DNA of 64,000 nucleotides from a bacterium (lineage in GTDB: Bacteria > UBA8248): contig OZ241326.1 in the NCBI GenBank assembly GCA_965199855.1, positions 960,001-1,024,000 of the forward strand. The letters run 5' to 3'. Each line of letters opens with the position of its first letter. Positions within the stretch are counted from its first letter, which is position 1. The translations under genes and the position numbers were made by a program. Positions 12,352-23,963 of the stretch are shown one piece after another. The notes beneath the pieces are model-generated. The model was not told the origin of the DNA, searched no databases, and worked only from the letters and a program-made list of their open reading frames with translations.

Positions 12352-14160
12352 TCAGCGAATCGCCCGCCGGACGGAGGTCATGGCCCCGAAGGGGTCCGGC
12401 CTCCGGAGCCGCTCTCGGGCGTCCGCGTCTCCCTTGAGGTGCCAGTCGAACCACGCCCGCGCGTACCAGTCGCGGATCACGTGGGGCAGATACGCCTCGC
12501 CCGCGCTGGGGACTTCCGCCCAGCCGAGCTGTACGTAGCGCTCCCCGCCGCCTCCCGGCGGAGCGAAGGCGCGCGCGCCCGTGGGCTTGCGCGTCCGCTC
12601 CGGGGTCTGGCCGAAGGGCAGCGCCCCGCGCCGGAACGCCGGCCAGGGGAAGAGGCGCGCGAAGTCCTCCACGAGCGTGCCATGGTCGGTGTCGCGCGCG
12701 ATCACCAGCAGGCGGTCGGAGACCGCTCGCCGCCACCCGCTGAGCGCGACCGGCTGCGGGTTCCTCGCGCGATCGGGCGCGGCGCGCTCGGAGGCGAGCG
12801 GAAAGGCCGCGGCGGGGTCGCCCCCGGCCGCCGCCACCGCCGATTGGAACAGGCCGATGAAGATGCTCTGCACGAAGGCGTCCTCGTCGCCGATCATGAT
12901 CAACAGGGGCTTGCGGTTGCCGACGGGCAGCGTCTCGCCGCCCTCTTTCGTCTCGCCCGCGCCGAACATCTCCTCCGGCGTCCAGCTGAAGGGCGGGGCG
13001 TTGTTGAAGCCGAGCGCCGCGGCCGCGCCCGGCAGGTGGTTCGCCGCGAGCTGCGCCGTCATGGAGCCCAGCGAATGGCCGGCCAGTCCCACGCGCGCGC
13101 CGTCAATGCGCCCCGCCAGCAGGCCGCACAGACCGCGCGCCGCGCTGGTCGCGCCCATGGCGGCGAGCGCGGGGCGGCAGGTCTCCTTCTTCTCGCCGAG
13201 CAGCCGCGCGGTTCGCAGCGTCAGCCTCACGTCGTCCACGCGCCGGCGAAAAAGGTTGCGCATCATCGCCATGGCGCGCTCCACCCCGCCGGGGACGAGC
13301 TTCTCCTTCGGCGGGTCGAAGCCGGCGGGCGGCGCGAACCCCCGTCCCTCGCGCCCGAACGCGAGGCGGTAGAAATAGGGGACGACCTTGGCCTCGCCGA
13401 GCATCAGCGCGTAGGCGCGCTTCACCTCCTCGGGCGAGGCGCGCCTGGCGAAGGGCGAATCCGGGTCGTGGAACGCGAGCGCCAGGCCGCCGTCCGAGAC
13501 GAAGGTGGGCGCCGCCACCACGTAGCCGCGCGAGGCGAGAAACTCGGCGAAGGAGCTCCACATGCCGTGGCTTCCGCCGAGGCCGTGGGCGAGAACCACG
13601 AGGGGAAACCTCCCCTCGGCGGGCCGGGCGCCGATCCACGCTCCGAGCGGGGCGTCGAGGGTGCGCCGGCGAATCTCGCGGAGGGCGTCCCCGCGCGCCG
13701 CCCCCTTCGCTTCGGCGAGGGTTCCGCCGCCGCGAAGGCGGACGTGCCGCGGCGGCGGCCGGGGCGCCGCGGCGATTCGCTCCGCCAGGGAGCGATCCCG
13801 AAAGTAGAGGTCGAAGAACGTAGCTCGCCGCCCGCTCGCTGCGGGGCGGGGGGAGCGCGGCCCGGCGAGGCGCCCGCGCGCGGGGTCCGGCGCCGCCGGA
13901 TACCACAGCTGGAACGGCGCCGTCCGGGTCTGGCCCGCCGCCTCCACCCGGCGCAGGAGGGCGCGGTATTCGGGGCGGCCGTAGGCGGCGTTCCAGGGGT
14001 CGAAGCGCTGATGCCTGTCCACGGCGAAGCCGGTGAGCGTCCCCACGGCGTAGTCGCCGTAAGCCGCCCCCGAGGGCAGGGCGCGCAGCTGCGCCGCCGC
14101 GCCGCCGGGGTTCGCGATAGCGAGGACGAAGGCGAGCGGCAGCGCCGCCAGGAATTTCAT
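12352..14160 (-). CDS. Secreted alpha/beta hydrolase (PAF-acetylhydrolase-like)
   Basis: Signal peptide; FPLVVLAHGLGG, LASRGYVVAAP, nucleophile GHSLG. Confidence 0.75.
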   Translation of the reverse strand: MKFLAALPLAFVLAIANPGGAAAQLRALPSGAAYGDYAVGTLTGFAVDRHQRFDPWNAAYGRPEYRALLRRVEAAGQTRTAPFQLWYPAAPDPARGRLAGPRSPRPAASGRRATFFDLYFRDRSLAERIAAAPRPPPRHVRLRGGGTLAEAKGAARGDALREIRRRTLDAPLGAWIGARPAEGRFPLVVLAHGLGGSHGMWSSFAEFLASRGYVVAAPTFVSDGGLALAFHDPDSPFARRASPEEVKRAYALMLGEAKVVPYFYRLAFGREGRGFAPPAGFDPPKEKLVPGGVERAMAMMRNLFRRRVDDVRLTLRTARLLGEKKETCRPALAAMGATSAARGLCGLLAGRIDGARVGLAGHSLGSMTAQLAANHLPGAAAALGFNNAPPFSWTPEEMFGAGETKEGGETLPVGNRKPLLIMIGDEDAFVQSIFIGLFQSAVAAAGGDPAAAFPLASERAAPDRARNPQPVALSGWRRAVSDRLLVIARDTDHGTLVEDFARLFPWPAFRRGALPFGQTPERTRKPTGARAFAPPGGGGERYVQLGWAEVPSAGEAYLPHVIRDWYARAWFDWHLKGDADARERLRRPDPFGAMTSVRRAIR

Positions 14161-14239
14161 GCTTTTCTCCCGTTCCCTGAAAGCGCGGCGGCGAGAAGGG
14201 CGAAGTCCCGCGGAAGCCGAAGCCTCGCCCGCCTCGTCT

Positions 14240-14740
14240 TTACGGCTTTTTCCAGGAGCAGGTGGATTTGGAGACGAGCCATTTGTCCGGCAGGTAGTCC
14301 GTCCGGTAGGGGCACTCTCCGCTCATCCCGGCGTATTTTCCGGTGCCGCCCATGATGCGCTGGACGCCCCGCCCGCCGCCGCCGACCTGGATGTCGCCCG
14401 CGCTCCTCTCCGCCAGCAGATAGAGCTTGTCGCCCGCCGAGTCGGTGAACGCGCAGGGCGCCTGAAGCTGGACGCCCTTCTTCGTTTTCTTCACATAGAC
14501 GAGGCACGCCGCGCCGAAGTTCGCCCCCGCCGGGAAGGGGCCGCCGCTGCTCCTGACGATGGTGGCCGTTCCGCGCAGGGGACCTACGGTGACGTCGGCG
14601 TCCGCGTGCTTCATGGTCGAGTAGTCGTGGACGGCGCTCTCATAGAACTCGAAGCTGCCGCTCTCGGCGGCTAGGGCTGCGCCTGCCGAGAAGGCGAGGC
14701 CCGCCAGGGCGGCCGCCGCTGCGCCGAAGAATCTCCTCAT
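14240..14740 (-). CDS. Secreted hypothetical beta-rich protein
   Basis: RBS AGGAGG, signal peptide MRRFFGAAAAALAG, GGTGKYAG motif, four Cys. Confidence 0.7.
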   Translation of the reverse strand: MRRFFGAAAAALAGLAFSAGAALAAESGSFEFYESAVHDYSTMKHADADVTVGPLRGTATIVRSSGGPFPAGANFGAACLVYVKKTKKGVQLQAPCAFTDSAGDKLYLLAERSAGDIQVGGGGRGVQRIMGGTGKYAGMSGECPYRTDYLPDKWLVSKSTCSWKKP

Positions 14741-14877
14741 GTTCGCTCCTCCTTTTTCGTCCCTTATGAGCTTCCCGAAAGCCGGGAGGCGGCGCGCCAA
14801 GTGTAGGACGCCGCGCCGTCCGCCTTCAACCGCGCGGGAGAGGCGGGCGCGACCGGCGGGGAGGCTTGGCGTTATCC

Positions 14878-15006
14878 AAAAAATACACCCCCGGAGAGGC
14901 CGGAGGCGTCGCGAGGGTGAGATCGTTTCCCCGTGCCGCGGGGAATTGCCTGCGAAGATTTTCTCCTTGTTGAGAAAAGCGGGGCAGGCATCGATCAGCT
15001 AAAACT
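14878..15006 (-). ncRNA. tracrRNA
   Basis: Anti-repeat 14969-15005 (GUUUUAGCUGAUCGAUGCCUGCCCCGCUUUUCUCAAC) complementary to the crRNA repeat, followed by AAGG/nexus-like stem, hairpin 14927-14945, a terminal hairpin and a U6 tract at 14878-14883. Confidence 0.88.
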
Positions 15007-15012
15007 GATATA

Positions 15013-15041
15013 TTCGTAGGGCATCCCGCGGATTTTGTCAA
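15013..15041 (-). promoter_or_regulatory. Putative tracrRNA promoter
   Basis: Perfect -35 TTGACA (15036-15041), 17 bp, weak -10 TACGAA; predicts a start at ~15006, the anti-repeat 5' end. Confidence 0.5.
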
Positions 15042-15055
15042 GGGGGGATTTGGAC

Positions 15056-18013
15056 ATGCCGCCTCTCACGCTGGGACTCGACCTGGGCCCCAACTCCATC
15101 GGCTGGACGCTCATCGAAGAGAACGAAGCGGGCGACCCCGCGCGCCTGAAGGCCATGGGCGTCCGCGCGTTTCAGGAGATGGTGGACAGGAAGACCAAGA
15201 CGCCGAAGAACCACAAGAGGCGGGACGCGCGGCAGGCGCGCCGCCAGCGCGGAAGGCGAAAGATGCGGCGCGAGACCCTCCGGCGCCAGCTCGTTCGGGC
15301 CGGGCTTCTGCCCGAGGACGCCGGGGCGCTGCGCGGGCTGTTTCACGAGGCCGACCCCTACGAAGTCAGGAAGCGCGGCCTCGACGAGGAGCTGACGCCG
15401 CGCGAGCTGGGCCGCGCCATCTTCCACCTGAACCAGAGGCGGGGGTTTCTGAGCAACCGCAAGGTGCGCGACTCGGGCGAGAAGAAAAAGGAGGACGGCG
15501 TCGCCCTCAAGGAAATCGGGGAGCTGAAAAAGGAAATCAAGGAAGCCGGAAGCCGCACGCTGGGCGAGTTTCTGGCGGGCAAGCCCAAGAAGAGGAGCCG
15601 CCGCACGGAGCGGAGAATGTATGAGGAGGAGTTCGACGTCCTCTGGCGGAAGCAGGCGGAGTTTCACCCCGACTTGCTCACCGACGCCCTTCGCGCCCGC
15701 CTCCGCAAGACCCTGTTCTTCCAGCGGCCCCTGAAGGTTCAGAAGTTTCTCGTCGGGAGATGCACCTTCGAGCCGCACAGGAAGCGATGCCCCTGGCGCC
15801 GGCCGGAGGCGCAATGGTTCCGCGCGCTTCAGGACGTGAACCATCTCGAGATCAAGGACCCGAAAACGCGCCTGTACCGCCCTCTCCGGGAGGAGGAGAG
15901 AGAGGCGATCAAGGGACTGCTCCGGGAGCGGAAAACGCTTTGCTGGAAGAGCATCCGCAGGGCGCTGGGTCTCCACGAGGGCGAGACCTTCAACATCGAG
16001 GACGGCGGCAAGAAGAACCTCATCGGCGCGCGCACGCTCATCGCCGTCCGCAAAATCCTCACGAAGGAGACGTGGGAGGCCATGCCCGAAGCCGACCGCG
16101 CCGCCTTCTTCGAGGACCTGTTCAGCATCGACAAGGAAGAGCTCCTCCTGAAGCGGCTGGAGCGGCGCTGGAATCTCTCGCGCGAGCAGGCGAACGCGCT
16201 GCTGAACACGGAGTTTCAGCCGGGCTACGCCAGCCTCTCTCTGCGCGCGATTCGCAGAATCACGCCGCACCTGGAGCGGGGGCTGAACTATCACGACGCG
16301 TATCAGGAGGAGGGCTATCAGCGCGAGGATCAGAAGAAAGTCGAGGCGGGCGACGCGCTCGCTCCCGCCCCGGCTCTCAGGAATCCCATCGTCCAGAAGG
16401 CGATCAACGAGACGCGCAGGGTGGTGAACGCGATCATCCGGGAATACGGAAAGCCGGACATCATCCGCGTGGAGCTCGCCCGCGACATGAAGCTCAGCCA
16501 GAAGCGCAAGAAGGCGCTCGACCTCCAGAACAGAAAGAACAGGGACATGAACGACGAGGCGCGCAAGCTGATGGCGGAGCTCGGAGTGTTCGACAACGGG
16601 GGCAACCGGCTCAGATACCGCCTGTGGAAGGAGCAGAAGTGCAAGTGCCCCTACACGGGCAGGAGCATCGGGGGGCGCGATATTTTCAGCCCCGAGTTCG
16701 AGATCGATCACATCCTCCCCTACAGCCGGACGCTGGACGACTCCTACATGAACAGAACCCTCTCCCTGGCCTCCGCCAACCGGGCGAAGGGAAACAATAC
16801 CCCCCGGGAGTGGAAGGAGGGCGGCGAGGGGTTCGCCGACATGCTCCAGCGCGTCTCCGCCATGAAGGAGATGCCCTTCTCCAAGAGGCGGCGCTTCGAG
16901 CAGAAGGAGATCGACACGGACGGCTTCATCGACCGCCAGCTCAACGACGCCCGCTACATCAGCCGCGAGGTGAGCCGGTATCTCCAGGCGCTCGGCGCGG
17001 AGGTTCAGGTGACGACGGGGCAGGCCACCGCCGCCCTGCGCCGCTCCTGGCGCCTCGACGGAATTCTCGCCATCGACTCCGACTTGGAGAAAAACCGCGC
17101 CGACCATCGCCACCACGCCATCGACGCGCTGGTCATCGCCCTCACGAGCCGCAAGCTGTTTCTCGCCATCGCGCGCCTCTCCGCCGAGCGGCGCGAGGTT
17201 CTGGGAAAGAAGCGCTTTCCGCTTCCGCCGCCCTGGCCCGGTTTCATGGACGAGGCGCGGGAGAAGGTGGGCGGCATCGTCGTCTCCCACCAGCCGCTCG
17301 GGAAGATCACCGGCGCCTTCCACGAGGAGACCGCCTACGGGCGCATCGAGCATGAGGGGCGCGAGGCTTTCGTCCGCCGGGTTCCGCTGGAGTCGCTCAC
17401 GGCGAAGCAGGTGGAGAAAATCGTGGACGCCCGCGTCCGGGAGCTGGTGAGCGATCGCATGGCCGCCCACGACAACAAGGCCAGGGACGCCTTCGCCAAC
17501 AAGCCCCTGTGGCTGGAGCATTCCCGCAAGCGGACGGGAAGAACGCGAATCAGGACGGTTCGCGTCGCCGAGAATCTCAACCCGGACGGCCTGTTCGGGG
17601 TGAAGCGGCAGGGCGAGGAGACGCCCTTCAAGTATTACGCATACGGGAACAACCACCACGTCGAGATCATCGAGAACGAGAAGACGGGCAGGCGAAAGGG
17701 CGTCGTCGTCACGGCGATGGAGGCCGCCCGGCGCGCCCGCCGGGAAGGAGTCCCTATCGTCCGGCGCAACCATGGCCCGGAATGGCGCTTCGTCATGTCG
17801 CTTTCCATCAACGATATGGTGAGGCTCGACAAGCCCGTGAACGGCTGCGATCTGTATCGGGTTCAAAAACTGTCAGCAACAGGGCAGATGCAAATGATGT
17901 TGCGGGCGCATACGGCCGCTACCCTGGATGACAATGCAACATGTGTAAGGCTAAACCCCAACACGCTCAGGGGACGAAAGATCTCCGTCGATCCTTTGGG
18001 GAACATAATCTGA
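15056..18013 (+). CDS. cas9: Type II-C CRISPR endonuclease Cas9, 985 aa
   Basis: RuvC-I LGLDLGPNSIGW, Arg-rich bridge helix, RuvC-II IRVELARD, HNH EIDHILPYSRTLDDSYMN...NRAKGN, RuvC-III HRHHAIDA, C-terminal VDPLG; catalytic residues intact. Confidence 0.97.
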   Translation: MPPLTLGLDLGPNSIGWTLIEENEAGDPARLKAMGVRAFQEMVDRKTKTPKNHKRRDARQARRQRGRRKMRRETLRRQLVRAGLLPEDAGALRGLFHEADPYEVRKRGLDEELTPRELGRAIFHLNQRRGFLSNRKVRDSGEKKKEDGVALKEIGELKKEIKEAGSRTLGEFLAGKPKKRSRRTERRMYEEEFDVLWRKQAEFHPDLLTDALRARLRKTLFFQRPLKVQKFLVGRCTFEPHRKRCPWRRPEAQWFRALQDVNHLEIKDPKTRLYRPLREEEREAIKGLLRERKTLCWKSIRRALGLHEGETFNIEDGGKKNLIGARTLIAVRKILTKETWEAMPEADRAAFFEDLFSIDKEELLLKRLERRWNLSREQANALLNTEFQPGYASLSLRAIRRITPHLERGLNYHDAYQEEGYQREDQKKVEAGDALAPAPALRNPIVQKAINETRRVVNAIIREYGKPDIIRVELARDMKLSQKRKKALDLQNRKNRDMNDEARKLMAELGVFDNGGNRLRYRLWKEQKCKCPYTGRSIGGRDIFSPEFEIDHILPYSRTLDDSYMNRTLSLASANRAKGNNTPREWKEGGEGFADMLQRVSAMKEMPFSKRRRFEQKEIDTDGFIDRQLNDARYISREVSRYLQALGAEVQVTTGQATAALRRSWRLDGILAIDSDLEKNRADHRHHAIDALVIALTSRKLFLAIARLSAERREVLGKKRFPLPPPWPGFMDEAREKVGGIVVSHQPLGKITGAFHEETAYGRIEHEGREAFVRRVPLESLTAKQVEKIVDARVRELVSDRMAAHDNKARDAFANKPLWLEHSRKRTGRTRIRTVRVAENLNPDGLFGVKRQGEETPFKYYAYGNNHHVEIIENEKTGRRKGVVVTAMEAARRARREGVPIVRRNHGPEWRFVMSLSINDMVRLDKPVNGCDLYRVQKLSATGQMQMMLRAHTAATLDDNATCVRLNPNTLRGRKISVDPLGNII

Positions 18014-18030
18014 AGCCCAGGAGACCGCCC

Positions 18031-18924
18031 ATGATCAAAAGAATCGTAGAGATCGGTAGTCCCGCCCGTCTCTCGCTCAGCAAGAAGCAGCTGAAGGTCG
18101 AGCGGGAGGAGTTCGCCGCCGAGTCGCTCCCCGTGGAGGATCTGGGGGTTCTGATTCTCGACCACCCCGCCATCCGTCCCTCACAGGGGCTGCTATCCGA
18201 GTGCATGAAGAACAACGTGGCCGTCGTCATGTGCGACGAGAAGCACCTGCCCGCCTCCGTCCTGCTTCCCCTGGACGGCCACACCCTGCACAGCAAAATC
18301 GTCAGGGAGCAGGCCGCCGCCACCCCCGGCAGAATGGGCCGCATCTGGCGGGCGATTGTCCGCGCGAAGATTCTCGCCCAGGCGGACGCCCTGGACGCCT
18401 TTGACGAATACGGCGGCCCGCTTCGCGCCATCGCCGGGCGCGCCGGACGGGAGAACCCCGCCCACGCCGAGGCGCGCGCCGCGCGGATGTATTGGCCCAG
18501 AATGTTCGGCGAGGACTTCAGGCGCAACCGCGCCCTTCCCGGCGTGAACCGCCTGCTGAACTACGGCTACTCGCTCGTGCGCGCGGCGACGGCGCGGGCG
18601 GTCGTCGCCGCGGGGCTTCACCCCGCCTTCGGTCTCCACCACCACAACCAGTACGACGGCTTCTGCCTCGCCGACGACCTGATGGAGCCTCTGCGCCCGA
18701 TGGTGGACCGCAGGGTGCGCCTCATGCGCGACGCGCCGGACTTCTGGGGGGAGGAGCCGAAGCTCGGCAGGGAGGAGAAGCGCGAGCTGCTGGGCGCGCT
18801 GGCGGGCGAGGCGCGGCTCGGCGGCAGGACCTACCCCCTTCTCACCGCCCTGCAATACTACGCCGCCGGCGTTCGCCGCGTCCTCTGCGGAGAGGAGAAG
18901 GAGACGGACATCCCCCGGCCATGA
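18031..18924 (+). CDS. cas1: Type II CRISPR-associated Cas1
   Basis: PVEDLG, CDEKHLP, EARAARMYW, NRLLNYGY, GLHH, LADDLMEP; follows cas9. Confidence 0.96.
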   Translation: MIKRIVEIGSPARLSLSKKQLKVEREEFAAESLPVEDLGVLILDHPAIRPSQGLLSECMKNNVAVVMCDEKHLPASVLLPLDGHTLHSKIVREQAAATPGRMGRIWRAIVRAKILAQADALDAFDEYGGPLRAIAGRAGRENPAHAEARAARMYWPRMFGEDFRRNRALPGVNRLLNYGYSLVRAATARAVVAAGLHPAFGLHHHNQYDGFCLADDLMEPLRPMVDRRVRLMRDAPDFWGEEPKLGREEKRELLGALAGEARLGGRTYPLLTALQYYAAGVRRVLCGEEKETDIPRP

Positions 18925-19250
18925 CCTTCGGGGGGCTGCGCTCCATGTGGCTCATGGTGATGTTCGACCTGCCGACCGACACGAAGGCGGCGCGCAAGGC
19001 GTATCAGGCGTTTCGGGGCGCGCTGCTGGAGGACGGCTTCACCATGCTCCAGTATTCGGTCTATGCCCGCCACTGCCCGAGCAGCGAGAACGCCGGGGCG
19101 CACGAGAGGCGGGTGAACGCCGCCCTGCCCCCCGACGGGGAGGTGCGGCTCCTTCTTTTCACCGACGCGCAGTTCTCGCGCATGAAAATTTTTCACGGAA
19201 AGGTTCGGGGGGCGACGGAGAAGGCTCCCGATCAGGTCTCGCTGTTCTGA
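18921..19250 (+). CDS. cas2: CRISPR-associated Cas2
   Basis: MWLMVMFDLPT, FRxxLLEDGFTMLQYSVYAR; ATGA overlap with cas1; no csn2 or cas4 follows, hence II-C. Confidence 0.96.
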   Translation: MTFGGLRSMWLMVMFDLPTDTKAARKAYQAFRGALLEDGFTMLQYSVYARHCPSSENAGAHERRVNAALPPDGEVRLLLFTDAQFSRMKIFHGKVRGATEKAPDQVSLF

Positions 19251-19280
19251 CCCGCTTCGGGAGCCTGAACCCCAACCGGT

Positions 19281-19340
19281 GCTGATCGATGCCTGGCGCA
19301 ATTCACAACTACAAGAAGTGACTGGTTTATTGCGTTTCCC
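19281..19340 (-). ncRNA. Solitary degenerate repeat plus spacer-like sequence; putative regulatory crRNA-like guide (scaRNA/CreA-like)
   Basis: 19281-19309 = GCTGATCGATGCCTGGCGCAATTCACAAC (array repeat minus ATTATA, 1 deletion, 1 substitution); the adjacent 19310-19322 is the exact reverse complement of 19636-19648. Confidence 0.75.
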
Positions 19341-19396
19341 AGCTTCTTGCCCTACTATCAAATGACCCGTGGCGCGGGGAGAAGCCTATGTGCTGA

Positions 19397-19507
19397 CTAG
19401 CGGGATTTTGGCTTCGACCGCTTATGCGGCTTTACTGGTACCGTTTTGGGACCAGGCTTGTTGCCAGGACGAACTTGCCGCACTTTCTTCTGGCAATTAT
19501 TAGCCAT
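19397..19507 (-). CDS. 36-aa basic Lys/Arg/Pro-rich peptide MANNCQKKVRQVRPGNKPGPKTVPVKPHKRSKPKSR (putative Cas9-repressed effector or toxin)
   Basis: Strong RBS AAGGAGG just upstream of ATG; downstream of a canonical sigma70 promoter; function inferred only from context. Confidence 0.65.
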   Translation of the reverse strand: MANNCQKKVRQVRPGNKPGPKTVPVKPHKRSKPKSR

Positions 19508-19628
19508 AGCTCCCTCCTTTCTCCTCTGGTCATCACCCAGAGGTGGAAAAGTCAGGGCGAACGAGCGGATTTCCCCGCGCCACGGGGAACTCAAGTAGAT
19601 TTCATCTCTAACGCCCACCGCGTATATG

Positions 19629-19657
19629 ATACTACGTCACTTCTTGTAAGAAATCAA
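19629..19657 (-). promoter_or_regulatory. Sigma70 promoter of the small peptide, containing the guide target site
   Basis: -35 TTGATT (19652-19657), 17-bp spacer, -10 TAGTAT (19629-19634), AT-rich UP-like tract beyond -35; protospacer seed 19636-19648 lies in the spacer. Confidence 0.7.
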
Positions 19658-19811
19658 TAAAATAATCTGGAAAATAGCATATTTTATTCCCATCCGCCGC
19701 AATCGCTTGGCTTGATGATATTTTCCTTGCGCGCTCCCGGTAGATGAGCCCCGCCAAGATACTCGCCTTTGTCCGTCCTCGGTTGTGTTAATCAATGCGC
19801 CTAGCAGACAG

Positions 19812-19860
19812 AAAAGGCTCCCTAGCGGATCACGTTGTTGTGACCTGCTTCCGGGAGCCT
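19812..19860 (-). terminator. Putative terminator of the array transcript, within the duplicated cas2 3' end/leader
   Basis: AGGCTCCC...GGGAGCCT stem with inner pairing, followed by UUUU on the minus strand. Confidence 0.45.
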
Positions 19861-19894
19861 AAACCTAACCGGTTCAAACCGTTCGAGAGAACAT

Positions 19895-21377
19895 ATTATA
19901 GCTGATCGATGCCTGCCCGCAATTCACAACTGACATACCCAGTGCTCCGCCGCGCGCTTCATTATAGCTGATCGATGCCTGCCCGCAATTCACAACTGAC
20001 GTTTTCGGCGACGTCGTACTCAATCGATTATAGCTGATCGATGCCTGCCCGCAATTCACAACCCAGTCGCTGGCCTTCGCGCTCGGCCACGATTATAGCT
20101 GATCGATGCCTGCCCGCAATTCACAACTCGCGCACGTAACGCTCCGCGTCGTCCTCGATTATAGCTGATCGATGCCTGCCCGCAATTCACAACTCAAGCA
20201 CGCGGGAGAGCCGGACTTCTCCATTATAGCTGATCGATGCCTGCCCGCAATTCACAACGACCTCGCGCTCAGGCTGCGCGCTGAGTTATTATAGCTGATC
20301 GATGCCTGCCCGCAATTCACAACCGTGGGGGGCGAAGGTTCTCACGCGAGGCGATTATAGCTGATCGATGCCTGCCCGCAATTCACAACCCGGCAAACCC
20401 CTTTGAACCGCCTTTTTTCATTATAGCTGATCGATGCCTGCCCGCAATTCACAACTTCGGCAATTTGTCGTTCCGGCAACCGTTGATTATAGCTGATCGA
20501 TGCCTGCCCGCAATTCACAACCGGTGAACATTTCCCATCTGCCTCTCGAAGATTATAGCTGATCGATGCCTGCCCGCAATTCACAACCGCATGCGCTGGG
20601 CGGCGCTCGCGCATCTCATTATAGCTGATCGATGCCTGCCCGCAATTCACAACTGCGCGGGGACATTTGCCGTGGCGTCCCTATTATAGCTGATCGATGC
20701 CTGCCCGCAATTCACAACTCAGGGGCGCATGGATCCACCTGGACGGGGATTATAGCTGATCGATGCCTGCCCGCAATTCACAACCGATCCTGACGCAGCC
20801 GGAGGTCGTCGCGCATTATAGCTGATCGATGCCTGCCCGCAATTCACAACCGCGAGGGGCGGACAGGCCCAGCCCATGCGATTATAGCTGATCGATGCCT
20901 GCCCGCAATTCACAACCCTCCGCGATCATGTCCTCCGTCATCCCCTATTATAGCTGATCGATGCCTGCCCGCAATTCACAACATCCCCGCTCCCGTCCTC
21001 TTTCGAGTTGGCATTATAGCTGATCGATGCCTGCCCGCAATTCACAACGGATATCATTCAATGGATTCTCCCTCAACCATTATAGCTGATCGATGCCTGC
21101 CCGCAATTCACAACATCGGCCGCCGCCCGGGCGCGGACGCCCACATTATAGCTGATCGATGCCTGCCCGCAATTCACAACTGTGCCGCCCGAGGACGAGC
21201 GGCATCGGCATTATAGCTGATCGATGCCTGCCCGCAATTCACAACTGAAGGCGATGACGCCGTTCGCCGTCGGCGATTATAGCTGATCGATGCCTGCCCG
21301 CAATTCACAACTCTCGCCGCGGGTCGATGGCAACGCATTCAATTATAGCTGATCGATGCCTGCCCGCAATTCACAAC
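19895..21377 (-). CRISPR. CRISPR array, 23 identical 36-bp repeats and 22 spacers (17 of 30 nt, 5 of 29 nt)
   Basis: Plus-strand repeat ATTATAGCTGATCGATGCCTGCCCGCAATTCACAAC. Its minus-strand form GTTGTG...CTATAAT has the II-C layout and pairs with the tracrRNA, so the array is transcribed toward cas2. Confidence 0.98.
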
Positions 21378-21714
21378 CGCAGATCAGGAACATCGTCGCG
21401 CTCGGAATCGGCGCCATATTCGCCTTGCGAGCGTTGATCGAGCGGACGGCGAGGAATTGATGGCGGGCTGACAGCTCGCCGAAATTCATAATTTTTTGCG
21501 GTATTTTTATTATTCCAACGGGGTTTGTCCCCCCCCCCGGTCGCCACGAAAAACGAGGTCGAATTTCCCCGGGTTCCAGCCCCCGGGACGGCGCGCGTCA
21601 AAGGCGCGACATCGGGGCGGAACGGCTCGACTGAAAGGGGGCATGAAAAGCAGATTGTATCTAAATTTATGCAAAAGCGCGATCCGCGAGAACGCGCCGG
21701 TCGGGGTCGCCGGC

Positions 21715-23682
21715 TTACCGCGCCGCCTGCGCCAGCGCGGTTGCCGCGTCCGCCTGCGCCCAGGCGGCGCTCATCGCTTCCCAGGTCTCGCCCATGGCGG
21801 CCTTCCCCTTTTCCACCGCCGCCTGCGCCGTCGTAGTTCCCGCGGCCCGCGTCTGCTCCCACGCCGCTTTCGCCGCGCCCAGGGTCGCCGCCGCCTGCGC
21901 CAGCGCGGCGTCCATTTTCGCCCACGCCGCCCGCGCCTTTCCCTTCCCTCTCGCCGCCGCCTTCGCCGCGTCCGCCGCCTTCAGGGCCTTTTCCATGGCC
22001 GCCTTCGCCGCCGCATACCACGTCGTCTGCGCCCTGTTCGTCTCGTTGCGCGCCGCCTTTATCGCCCGCCAGACCGCCAGGGTCGCCGCGTCCGCCCGGT
22101 CGAGCGACGCCTGAGCCTTCTCCTTCCCCCTCGCCGCCGCCCTCAGCGCGGCGTCCGCCTGCGCCAGCGCCGCCCGCGCCTTTCCCTCAGCCGCCTTCGC
22201 CCGCGACGCTCTCGTCCGGGCCGCGGCTCTCTCTCGCGCGGCCTTCGTCAAAGCCGTCCGCGCCTGCGCGGCCTGGGCCTTCTCCCTCGCCGCGTCCGCC
22301 CGGGCGCGCGCCGCCGACTCATGTCTTGACGCCCGGAGGCTCTCCGCATACGCCCGAGCCGCCTGCGCCTTCGCCGCGTCAAAGGCCGCCGCGGCCTGCT
22401 CCCGCGCCGCCTGCGCCCGAGCCATCCTCACCGCCGCCGCCCGATCCCGCGCCGCCGACGCGTGGGCCCTCTCCAGCGCCGCGTGCGCTTTTTTCAGCGC
22501 CGCATCCGCCCGCGCCCACGCCGCCTTCGCTTTTCTCCGGGCCGTCTGAGCCGCCCGCGACGCCTTCACCCGCGCCGCCGCCGCTTTCCACGCCGTCTGC
22601 GCCGCGCGCTCCCGCGCCGTCGCTCTGTTCCTCACCGCCTTCGCATTGGCCGCTCTCGTCTGGGCCGCGGCTCTCTCCCGCGCCGCCTTCTCGTGCGCCA
22701 TCCTCGCCTTCGCCGCCCGCGCATGCGCCGCTCGCGCCTTCGCCGCGGCTCTTTCCCGCGCCGCCTGGGCCTGAGCCATCCGCGCCTTCGCCGCCCGCCC
22801 CGCCGCGTCCGCCTGGGCGCGCGCCGCCTGCGCCCTCGCCGCCTGCGTCCGCGCGGTCTCCCACGCGGCCCGGGCCCTCGCCGCCTGCGCCCGCGCGGCG
22901 CTCCACGCCGTCTGCGCCGCGCGCTCCCGCGCGTCCGCCGCCTGCCACGCCTCATCCGCCGTCCGCAGCCCCGCCTTCACCTGAGCGTTCTGCGCCGCCG
23001 CCATCTTTTCCAGCTTCGCCGCGGTGGCCGCCTGCGCGGCCTTCATCTTCTCCCACGCGGCCTGCGCCGCCGCCTCGTCCCCGTTCCACAGCGCCGCGGC
23101 CCTCTCTCTCGCCGCCGCCCGCACCCGGGCCATGCCCTCCGCGTATATCCCCAGCTCCGGGAGAGCGTCTTCCAGCCCGGCGGGCCCGGGCCTGGTCCCC
23201 CGAAGCAGCCGCGCTTCCCATTCCTCGCGCGCCGCGTGCGCCTTCTCCCACGCCGCGGACGCCCTTTCCCACGCCGCCTTCGCCTTCTCCCACGCGGCCT
23301 GGGCCGCCGCCTCGAGCGCCGCCGCCTCGCGCGCCGCGGCGTCCGCCTTCTCCTGGGCGGCCTGCGCCGCCTTTTCTCTCGCCGCGGCTTTTTTCCACGC
23401 CGCCTGCGCCCGCGCCGCCGGGGTCGCCGCCGCCCTTTCCCACGCCGCGGCGTCCGCCTTCTCCCGCGCCACCGCCGCCAGCGCCGCCTTTTCTCTCGCC
23501 GCCGCCCTTTCCCACGCGGCCTGCGCCGCGCGCGCCCGCGCCGCCGCCCTTTCCCGCGCCGCGAGGGTGGCCCGCGCCCGCGCCGCCAGGGATTTCTCTC
23601 GCGCCGCGCTCGCCCCGAATGACGGGACGGGCGCGGCAAGCGCGATTGCCGCCGCCAGCGCGCAGATCAAAAGCCTCCGCAT
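21715..23682 (-). CDS. Secreted Ala-rich repetitive coiled-coil protein
   Basis: Signal peptide MRRLLICALAAAIALAAP; recurring AQAAWE(R/K)AAARE(K/R) units across 655 aa. Confidence 0.6.
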   Translation of the reverse strand: MRRLLICALAAAIALAAPVPSFGASAAREKSLAARARATLAARERAAARARAAQAAWERAAAREKAALAAVAREKADAAAWERAAATPAARAQAAWKKAAAREKAAQAAQEKADAAAREAAALEAAAQAAWEKAKAAWERASAAWEKAHAAREEWEARLLRGTRPGPAGLEDALPELGIYAEGMARVRAAARERAAALWNGDEAAAQAAWEKMKAAQAATAAKLEKMAAAQNAQVKAGLRTADEAWQAADARERAAQTAWSAARAQAARARAAWETARTQAARAQAARAQADAAGRAAKARMAQAQAARERAAAKARAAHARAAKARMAHEKAARERAAAQTRAANAKAVRNRATARERAAQTAWKAAAARVKASRAAQTARRKAKAAWARADAALKKAHAALERAHASAARDRAAAVRMARAQAAREQAAAAFDAAKAQAARAYAESLRASRHESAARARADAAREKAQAAQARTALTKAARERAAARTRASRAKAAEGKARAALAQADAALRAAARGKEKAQASLDRADAATLAVWRAIKAARNETNRAQTTWYAAAKAAMEKALKAADAAKAAARGKGKARAAWAKMDAALAQAAATLGAAKAAWEQTRAAGTTTAQAAVEKGKAAMGETWEAMSAAWAQADAATALAQAAR

Positions 23683-23963
23683 CGTTTAGAGCCCCCCGTT
23701 GTCCGCCGCCTTCTCTCTCGCCGCCGTCCTGATCGTATGGCGGATCGCCCGCGCCGCATTCATTCCCGCGACCGATCGTCGCCGGACAAAGGCCTGAGCC
23801 TTGCGAACGCGGCGCGCATAGCGATCCTCCATCCGCACCGATGCCGTGATTTCCTTTATATTATATCTGATTGGCGTCTGACCGCAATTCGCGGCGAGCC
23901 GGTATGTAATATACTATATTTCGCAGGCGGAAAGGGCGGTTTTAACGGGATTCGGAGGGGAGC

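Follow-up and report, generated by a model that had tools for sequence, protein, structure and literature searches.

The locus described here raises the question of whether a type II-C Cas9 could silence a gene that lies between its own cas2 gene and its own array. It is part of a 64,000-nucleotide (nt) stretch of bacterial DNA (contig OZ241326.1, assembly GCA_965199855.1, GTDB lineage UBA8248; the whole stretch is called the window, and positions refer to it). [quoted passage not shown] The original prediction, made from the letters of the window, was that the repeat and its flank guide Cas9 to this promoter and keep the peptide silent. The match between guide and promoter is real and far beyond chance, and it is found again in a second species (G012, a congener that carries the module; G000 is the genome that holds the window, and other G- and L-numbers denote compared genomes and loci). 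Our favoured reading, to which we assign a probability of roughly 0.5, is that the solo repeat and its flank form a regulatory gene of the II-C system, resembling those for small CRISPR/Cas-associated RNAs (scaRNAs) and CRISPR RNA-like RNAs (crlRNAs), and that it makes Cas9 a repressor of the cargo gene.

A candidate 13-nt guide and its match in a putative promoter

The solo degenerate repeat (19281-19309, minus strand) reads GCTGATCGATGCCTGGCGCAATTCACAAC on the plus strand and has the orientation of the array, which starts at 19895, 586 bp away; the predicted position, orientation and distance (about 590 bp) thus hold in coordinates and letters. Immediately 5' of it, in RNA sense, lies the guide or psi-spacer (19310-19322, minus strand), GTCACTTCTTGTA. 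We take the solo repeat to occupy the position of a first repeat, because arrays begin 44–50 nt after cas2 in 60 of the 64 metagenomic II-C loci with a detectable array (80 were fetched), and because the first repeat lies some 47–50 nt after the cas2 stop in all four canonical relatives. It lacks 27 nt, including the leader-repeat junction, the first repeat bases and, in CRISPR RNA (crRNA) sense, its own −10 box; the missing 27 nt are present after 19280 in a contig of run X10. The −10 box of the array repeats is absent from the solo repeats of both G000 and G012. In two metagenomic II-C loci (L108 and L109) the repeats are reduced to one, which comes after cas2; the genes beyond it are unrelated and not the same on both contigs.

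The 13-mer recurs at 19636-19648 (plus strand), 313 bp from the guide and likewise between cas2 and the array, so placed that the strand paired with the guide would be the minus, non-template one. As predicted, it lies within the 17-nt spacer of a promoter-like sequence on the minus strand, TTGATT (19657-19652)-N17-TAGTAT (19634-19629, the putative −10 box), in front of the 36-residue open reading frame (ORF) with its AAGGAGG ribosome-binding site; the letters are correct, and the promoter agrees with the consensus at 8 of 12 positions. On the side of the protospacer-adjacent motif (PAM), the target is flanked by AGAAATCAA (19649-19657, plus strand), which ends in the six bases that, on the minus strand, make up the −35 box TTGATT. 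A direct reading of the sequence confirmed that the match ends at nt 14 (C at 19635, A in the guide), and beyond the 13-mer 2 of 17 PAM-distal positions agree (by eye). The guide is unchanged in strain-variant contigs of all three runs that cover it, and the target in contigs of both runs that cover it; in one variant contig 45 nt are deleted (19329-19373) and position 19635, which adjoins the target, is changed. Runs labelled sponge metagenome are among those with variants.

The claim that this match exceeds chance was borne out by counts in the window and in the genome. Allowing one mismatch, GTCACTTCTTGTA has two sites in the window where 0.01 are expected, and none of 100 shuffles reached two. 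In the 3,043,534-bp genome of G000, the PAM-proximal seeds of 13, 12, 11 and 10 nt occur only at the guide and at the promoter, and a seed of 9 nt occurs 19 times. No guide match was found near cas9, the peptide promoter being the sole other genomic site. As a control, 409 ordinary spacers from 87 related loci were searched for PAM-proximal matches to the non-array DNA of their own locus: none had a local match of at least 12 nt and three had one of 11 nt. For the other degenerate solo repeat of the window (23860-23895), no local match of at least 11 nt was found.

Pairing of the solo repeat with the trans-activating CRISPR RNA (tracrRNA) is predicted in both species. The tracrRNA gene (14878-15006, minus strand; read from the sequence, ends set by eye) lies upstream of cas9 and divergent from it. 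The predicted duplex of the solo repeat with the tracrRNA of the same genome has an energy of −42.2 kcal/mol in G000 and −47.7 kcal/mol in G012, compared with −50.7 and −51.4 kcal/mol for array repeats of equal length and a mean of about −15 kcal/mol for shuffled solo repeats. The solo repeat of G012 differs from the array repeat at several central positions and pairs almost continuously with its own tracrRNA; its duplex with the tracrRNA of G000 is worse (−36.9 kcal/mol).

The proposed mechanism is as follows. The guide RNA would be transcribed from the minus strand. In G000 its simplest source would be read-through of the peptide transcript, which would end just upstream, because homology with the G012 module runs to about 13 nt from the guide and no terminator-like site was found between ORF and guide. 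In G012 it might start from a 35-nt frame GTTG...TACAAT, 26 nt upstream of the solo repeat; the frame is repeat-like at its two ends only, and may represent a degenerate second repeat from which the −10 box comes. The solo-repeat part would pair with the tracrRNA, and the loaded Cas9 would bind the 13-bp seed match between the −35 and −10 boxes, with the −35 box inside the PAM-side flank. So bound, Cas9 would block RNA polymerase and would do so without cutting, since 13 matched bases are too few for cleavage. As the guide of G000 lies downstream of the gene that it would repress, the arrangement would amount to negative feedback. Peptide expression would rise if Cas9, tracrRNA or guide were lost or inhibited.

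Conservation of the pair in a second species

The module was found in 1 of 60 other genomes searched at the DNA level, and a profile of the peptide was positive in 2 of 23 genomes of the genus (G000 and G012). In G012 the order, in the direction of cas2, is cas2, a full-length diverged leader, the solo repeat AGCTGATCGACGCCTCGTTACAATTCACAAC, then TACAAGAAGTGAC and 72 nt, TTGATTTCTTACAAGAAGTGATATATATT, a leader, AAGGAG, the 36-residue ORF, a tRNA-like gene, the same cas2 stub as in the window, a leader and the array. Compared with G000, the unit of promoter and peptide is thus inverted: two 13-mers that enclose the peptide gene as a perfect inverted repeat in G000 are direct repeats 72 nt apart in G012.

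The guide is identical at 13 of 13 positions in the two species, and the sequence on its far side is unrelated. Guide and target of G012 match at 12 of 13 positions, with the mismatch at the PAM-distal end, and both species have the PAM-side flank AGAAATCAA. Over the whole alignment the modules agree at 228 of 342 positions (67%), and the longest identical run, 21 nt (TTGATTTCTTACAAGAAGTGA), consists of the −35 box and the target; the next runs are of 16 and 13 nt (the arms of an mRNA helix) and of 12 nt (the ribosome-binding site). Sequence upstream of the −35 box is not conserved, and the TTGATT/TAnnnT pattern with its 17-nt spacing is kept. The promoter of G012 (TTGATT-17-TATATT, with TATATT in the place of TAGTAT) agrees with the consensus at 9 of 12 positions and is listed by a consensus scan.

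Allowing up to four substitutions, the 21-nt block is absent from all 47 non-CRISPR loci of the peptide, the only copies being the two linked to CRISPR; nor did it have an exact match in viral contigs. The 12-mer of G012 has one extra genomic match, in a coding region and with a different flank, and a reversed control pattern also has one, which is about chance level. Pairing of guide and target is therefore kept in the one other species with the module (1/1). A relation in trans between guide and promoter is the best reading of the 13-mer pair, because the pair is conserved together across the inversion.

Other candidates for the pair were set aside in the course of the comparison. The direct-repeat arrangement in G012 excludes the stem of an RNA in cis, the ends of a transposon and an invertible switch. 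A mobile element or miniature inverted-repeat transposable element was rejected, as the module is single-copy and the 13-mers do not flank the gene in G012.

The peptide, its mRNA and the surrounding locus

The peptide gene (19397-19507, minus strand) encodes MANNCQKKVRQVRPGNKPGPKTVPVKPHKRSKPKSR, a basic, proline-rich peptide that is conserved as a protein across phyla and is 77% identical in G012. The family consensus is MxCKKxxRxVRxGKKPGPKTVPVKPHKRSKPKPC, with 57 cluster representatives at E ≤0.001 among 1.84 billion proteins. Genome records of many phyla contain 79 loci, with 49 ORFs delimited. Genes of a cas system lie within 4 kb at one of the 79, the record that matches G012, and the other 78 have no CRISPR link. 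The loci share no neighbour gene, the largest neighbour cluster comprising 4 of 47 loci. Homologues (L021–L099) are basic, proline-rich and 33–45 residues long, with a motif KPGPKTVPVKPHKRSKP that is sometimes doubled. The peptide matched no family in Pfam, NCBIfam, PADLOC or PHROGs, whether of toxins, defence proteins or phages; a tblastn search of plasmids and phages gave no match at E 1e-3, a protein atlas gave unnamed clusters only, below 0.9, and no paper on the motif was found in the literature.

The Shine-Dalgarno sequence AAGGAGG (19519-19513, minus strand) follows a hairpin with arms at 19518-19529 and 19537-19548, which is kept in G012 with different stem letters (by eye). Further out, 19572-19586 and 19366-19380 would form the 5' and 3' arms of a helix that folds the mRNA back on itself (both on the minus strand, found as an inverted repeat and in the fold); they constitute a nested 15-nt inverted repeat, the second in the window. 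Such fold-back is a trait of the peptide family, in which the mRNAs have complementary 5' and 3' arms specific to each locus. Complementarity was measured between the 150 nt that precede the ORF and the 120 nt that follow it; in 17 of 50 loci its longest stretch surpassed that of all 50 shuffles, with sequences that differ between loci. In the predicted minimum-free-energy folds, the mRNA is closed by a 5'-3' helix and the ribosome-binding site is partly covered (z = −4.8 and −6.2). Type I toxin mRNAs of the hok type fold back from 5' to 3' end, and the peptide mRNA resembles them in its long-range helix and partly sequestered ribosome-binding site. The peptide differs from type I toxins, being strongly basic, proline-rich and hydrophilic (rich in Lys, Arg and Pro, with no hydrophobic stretch) rather than a small hydrophobic membrane peptide.

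In G012 the peptide gene is followed on its own strand, after 77 nt, by a 90-nt tRNA-like gene (L010, 1366-1455, minus strand). It has the anticodon UGG, is called as a proline tRNA by ARAGORN, and scores 52.8 bits with the Rfam tRNA model. Judged by eye, its variable arm is long, its acceptor stem has 8 bp and its discriminator base is U; these are traits of allo-tRNAs, which place serine at codons that do not specify it and are often found close to toxin-antitoxin genes (Mukai et al., PMC5389517). The gene could be transcribed together with the peptide from the promoter that the guide targets. A second allo-tRNA-like gene (92 nt, anticodon GCG) lies elsewhere in G012. Seven of the 79 peptide loci have a tRNA gene in the same orientation within 250 nt, and odd tRNAs occur at L058 (89 nt, anticodon UAU), L055 (79 nt) and L030 (a four-base anticodon call). 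A tRNA 3' remnant in G000 (about 19746-19768), noticed by eye only, was not supported by global alignment.

The original prediction went on to a silenced toxin that gives addiction or abortive defence. Its first part, the relation between guide and promoter, is supported by co-conservation in G012, by the predicted pairing with tracrRNA and by the occurrence of the 21-nt block in CRISPR-linked copies only; its second part, the toxin, is not, given the lack of a toxin-family match, the hydrophilic peptide and the 78 of 79 homologues free of CRISPR. We therefore treat as speculative, and as quite doubtful, the idea of a Cas9 version of a CRISPR-repressed toxin-antitoxin system that guards the II-C locus, with the solo-repeat RNA as antitoxin and the cargo unit as toxin. 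The toxin unit would be the 36-residue peptide, possibly with the allo-tRNA-like gene of proline anticodon in G012. Loss of cas9 or tracrRNA, or an anti-CRISPR that prevents Cas9 from binding DNA, would free the cargo and arrest the cell, so that the locus would be addictive and would sense anti-CRISPRs. In a metagenomic II-C locus (L107, 2902-3568), the array begins only 843 nt after cas2, and the interval is occupied by a FitA-like ribbon-helix-helix (RHH) antitoxin and a PIN toxin; the junction of cas2 and array is thus a site of addiction-module cargo in a related locus.

Around the module, the locus has the genes of a II-C system. The tracrRNA gene has a TTGACA promoter element (15041-15036), an anti-repeat (about 15003-14968), an AAGG nexus, a GC hairpin and a T-run terminator (near 14878), and this element upstream of cas9 is kept in all five relatives examined and in G001. 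The II-C cas9 gene (15056-18013, plus strand; ATG at 15056 in an ORF open from 15035) matches RuvC_III, HNH_4 and Cas9_a; its closest solved structures are II-C Cas9s of about 1080 residues, and its product is 70–73% identical to the Cas9 of relatives. It is followed on the same strand by cas1 (17941-18924; Cas_Cas1, E 2.2e-25) and cas2 (18921-19250; CRISPR_Cas2, E 1.1e-15). The array (19895-21377, minus strand) comprises 23 repeats of 36 nt and 22 spacers of 29–30 nt, and every repeat reads GTTGTG...TATAAT in crRNA sense (minus strand), which is the usual sense in II-C systems, where a −10 box stands at the end of each repeat. The stretch from solo repeat to cas2 stub (about 500 bp) has 50% GC in a genome of 67.3% GC and is single-copy in G000. 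A scan of 13500-22000 with Rfam gave no match above chance, and no recombinase or regulator gene was found in the cargo.

Beyond the array, a 655-residue repeat protein rich in Ala, Arg and Glu, with a signal-like start and no family match, is encoded at 21715-23895 (minus strand), between the array end and the degenerate repeat at 23860-23895, whose TATAAT end faces that gene. Elsewhere in the genus, G001 (L191/L189; a congener of 3.1 Mb) keeps the tracrRNA and the first 55 or so codons of cas9, the rest of the locus including the module being gone. A second locus in G012 (L105, contig 1) has cas1 and cas2 that are 85–90% identical to those of the window; there a distant cas9 (32% identity) comes after, not before, cas1-cas2, and no array was found within the 1.4 kb examined downstream of cas2. 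Orphan truncated repeats occur in a non-CRISPR context in G011 (L187) and G010 (L188), with a flank that resembles part of one spacer of the window array (51 nt, 85% across spacer and repeat).

Alternative explanations and comparison with known systems

A number of observations weigh against repression by Cas9. The module is confined to two species and close strains, and covariation is not visible because guide and target have the same sequence in both; nor did the 80 metagenomic II-C loci, found by means of Cas2, include one with the layout of solo repeat, cargo and array, and thus a further case of covariation. The promoter of G000, at 8 of 12 positions, falls below the threshold of the consensus scan (9) and is not listed by it. 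No consensus promoter for the guide was found by scan in either genome, and a frame like the GTTG...TACAAT of G012 arises in 50 of 2000 shuffles of the cargo. Folding prediction places the seed within the stem of a local hairpin in the extended transcript of G000. The flank AGAAATCAA (of the type AGAAATCA) may perhaps not be permissive as a PAM. Neither the 22 spacers of the window nor 77 of G008 had a protospacer from which the PAM could be read, and the PAM-interacting domain of the window Cas9 has no close solved relative. In the underlying searches, 206 spacers from the window array and five relatives had no match of at least 22 nt in their own genome; those of the window had none in phages and only weak ones (34 nt, 88%) in plasmids, in Sinorhizobium genes; and the 22 and 77 spacers gave repeat-like matches only in 24 relatives that have no array. 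Transcription of the guide, loading of Cas9, compatibility of the PAM and repression itself are steps that we infer. Finally, the flank could derive from a tracrRNA-like copy rather than from selection for a guide, a point taken up below.

The alternative that survives best, which we consider unlikely, is that the structure is a relic with no function: a cas operon, bringing first repeat and some cargo along, would have entered a resident II-C locus by recombination, splitting the array and leaving behind a solo repeat and a stub of cas2, and the 13-mer pair would be an inherited leftover, for instance of a short duplication. The last 37 nt of cas2 and the next 30 nt (19214-19280), which include a truncated copy of the leader adjoining the solo repeat (19251-19280, seen by comparison with canonical relatives), recur at 19807-19873 with 73% identity. 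This second copy belongs to the stub, a remnant of the cas2 3' end (19807-19843, plus strand), which is followed by a full leader (19844-19894) before the array and is nearer to the cas2 ends of relatives (79–83% identity). The breakpoint of stub and leader is identical in the window and G012; it points to a past replacement of the cas operon by recombination, and since G012 shares it, a single ancestral event is likely. The simplest history would be one recombination that set the cas operon, first repeat and cargo before an older array. Single-repeat loci with no guide role exist (L108 and L109), and the absence of covariation and of a protospacer that defines the PAM also fits a relic. This explanation does not account well for the conservation of the pair, however. 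At 67% identity the chance that a 13-mer stays identical is about 0.005 (0.67^13), and two such 13-mers are conserved. The target lies in a promoter spacer, normally the least constrained part, and yet is within the longest conserved block, and the match outlasted inversion of the target unit. A decayed full-length spacer, considered as the origin of the guide, was ruled out by the 2 matches at 17 PAM-distal positions.

Control of the peptide mRNA by antisense pairing, independently of Cas9, appears improbable to us. If the mRNA started upstream of the 13-mer, a minus-strand RNA from the solo repeat could pair with the mRNA leader over 13 bp and control its stability or translation, like a trans-acting small RNA or the antitoxin of a type I system. 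In Neisseria meningitidis, the II-C scaRNA is reported to work at the post-transcriptional level on an mRNA leader, no contribution of Cas9 being detectable in vivo (PMC13431127). Moreover, the peptide mRNA has a high degree of structure and folds back on itself (5'-3') as RNA-controlled mRNAs do, the promoter was called by consensus, and pairing in trans would work in either orientation of the unit. What speaks against an antisense RNA is the conservation around the target: the TTGATT/TAnnnT spacing of 17 nt is kept in both species and sequence upstream of the −35 box is not, and the conserved block, as a DNA operator would, takes in the −35 box and stops just short of the −10 box. It would also leave unexplained why the 13-mer adjoins a repeat that pairs with tracrRNA.

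Very improbable, in our view, is a tracrRNA-like paralogue on the plus strand, in which solo repeat and flank would be a partial copy of the 5' part of tracrRNA, acting as a decoy or alternative partner of crRNA, and the 13-mer would derive from the nexus. By eye, the plus strand of solo repeat and flank does resemble the start of tracrRNA genes. All six tracrRNAs have AAC-AAGAAG right after the anti-repeat (AAGGAG in G000), and that of G008 contains ACAAGAAGTGA, with 11 bases identical to the flank; in the window (14961-14975) and in the tracrRNAs of relatives, the segment after the anti-repeat nearly equals the plus strand of the guide 13-mer. The flank of G012 shares a further GTAACGA with its own tracrRNA, and the middle of its solo repeat, CGTTAC, is a closer match to CGTTGC of the tracrRNA than the array repeat is (both by eye). 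Guide and solo repeat of G012 together pair with tracrRNA at −61.4 kcal/mol, compared with the value given above for the solo repeat alone, and this longer pairing is due to the likeness of the flank to tracrRNA; the guide seed could also pair with the nexus stem. The resemblance may reflect descent from a tracrRNA-like copy or chance. Beyond the 13-mer, however, the two species share neither sequence nor hairpin design here, and the solo repeat is followed by none of the conserved tracrRNA 3' modules and by no terminator, all of which are present in the element upstream of cas9, where a complete tracrRNA is already encoded. The resemblance leaves the copy of the 13-mer in the peptide promoter, present in both species, unexplained.

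Least likely of all, a DNA-binding protein such as a repressor or recombinase would recognise the 13-mers, or these would be the termini of a mobile element. The perfect inverted repeat in G000, a short palindrome TTCTT-AC-AAGAA in the promoter block (by eye) and the 50% GC of the cargo in a 67% GC genome might be cited in favour, but the module is single-copy and has no recombinase or regulator gene, and since the 13-mers of G012 are direct repeats 72 nt apart that do not enclose the gene, they are neither the ends of an element nor a switch.

We return to the favoured reading, a guide that takes Cas9 to the promoter of the cargo gene, and to its relation to known systems. That no such module had been described for II-C systems, as originally stated, agrees with our literature search, which covered neither the supplementary tables of predicted type II mini-arrays nor those of predicted scaRNAs and in which no Cas9-repressed cargo gene inside a II-C locus was found; scaRNAs of Cas9 systems, including that of the Neisseria II-C locus, are in print. 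A 2025 review of the coupling between toxin-antitoxin and CRISPR systems names no Cas9 case. If the favoured reading is true, a II-C Cas9 that silences cargo of its own locus joins transcriptional control by Cas9 with cargo repressed by Cascade, and Cas9 loci also supervise genes embedded in them. It would then give a handle on a widespread family of small basic proteins with fold-back mRNAs, and a natural design of a repressor with a 13-nt guide for compact II-C Cas9s. If the peptide or the tRNA-like gene of G012 were toxic, this would be the first Cas9-guarded addiction module found in the literature searched.

In the II-B system of Francisella novicida, a scaRNA provides a short guide and pairs with tracrRNA, and active Cas9 represses PAM-adjacent DNA and leaves it uncut (PMC13431127; 10.64898/2026.06.01.729453; Ratner et al. 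2019 as cited in these). The module described here, as far as its sequence tells, is alike in having a repeat-like RNA outside the array, a short guide and pairing with tracrRNA. It differs in that the system is II-C, the target is one cargo gene in the CRISPR locus rather than a chromosomal virulence regulon, and the guide stands at the first-repeat position of a split array. The scaRNAs and the long tracrRNA (tracr-L) of II-A systems use guides of about 11 nt to repress the cas9 promoter, at the −35 region or the start site, without cutting and in a feedback loop (10.64898/2026.06.01.729453, which cites Workman et al. 2021). They share with the present case a short, promoter-directed guide encoded within or beside the locus, but act on the cas9 promoter, whereas here the promoter of a non-cas peptide is the sole genomic match. 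The scaRNA of N. meningitidis (PMC13431127) is likewise a small RNA linked to a II-C locus with a regulatory role outside defence; it is reported to act on an mRNA leader, whereas the case in the window better fits targeting of promoter DNA. According to Shmakov et al. (10.1101/2023.03.03.530964), about 6% of type II loci have mini-arrays that are not tracrRNA; the types analysed there are I and V-A.

Similar in layout are the CreTA and CreAP modules of I-B and I-F systems and the crlRNA-supervised I-C 'CRISIS', where a psi-spacer partly matches a cargo promoter beside a PAM and the −35 box. Like the module of the window, they have a solitary repeat unit beside a cargo gene inside the cas locus. 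They differ in that toxicity or defence has been demonstrated for their cargo, whereas for the peptide it is conjecture, and in that CreT RNA toxins act through runs of codons, whereas the peptide ORF is conserved as a protein. Their effector is Cascade (Cas12a for CreR) rather than Cas9 with tracrRNA; because the locus is II-C and has Cas9, the module would be an analogue of CreTA and CreAP and not a member of that group.

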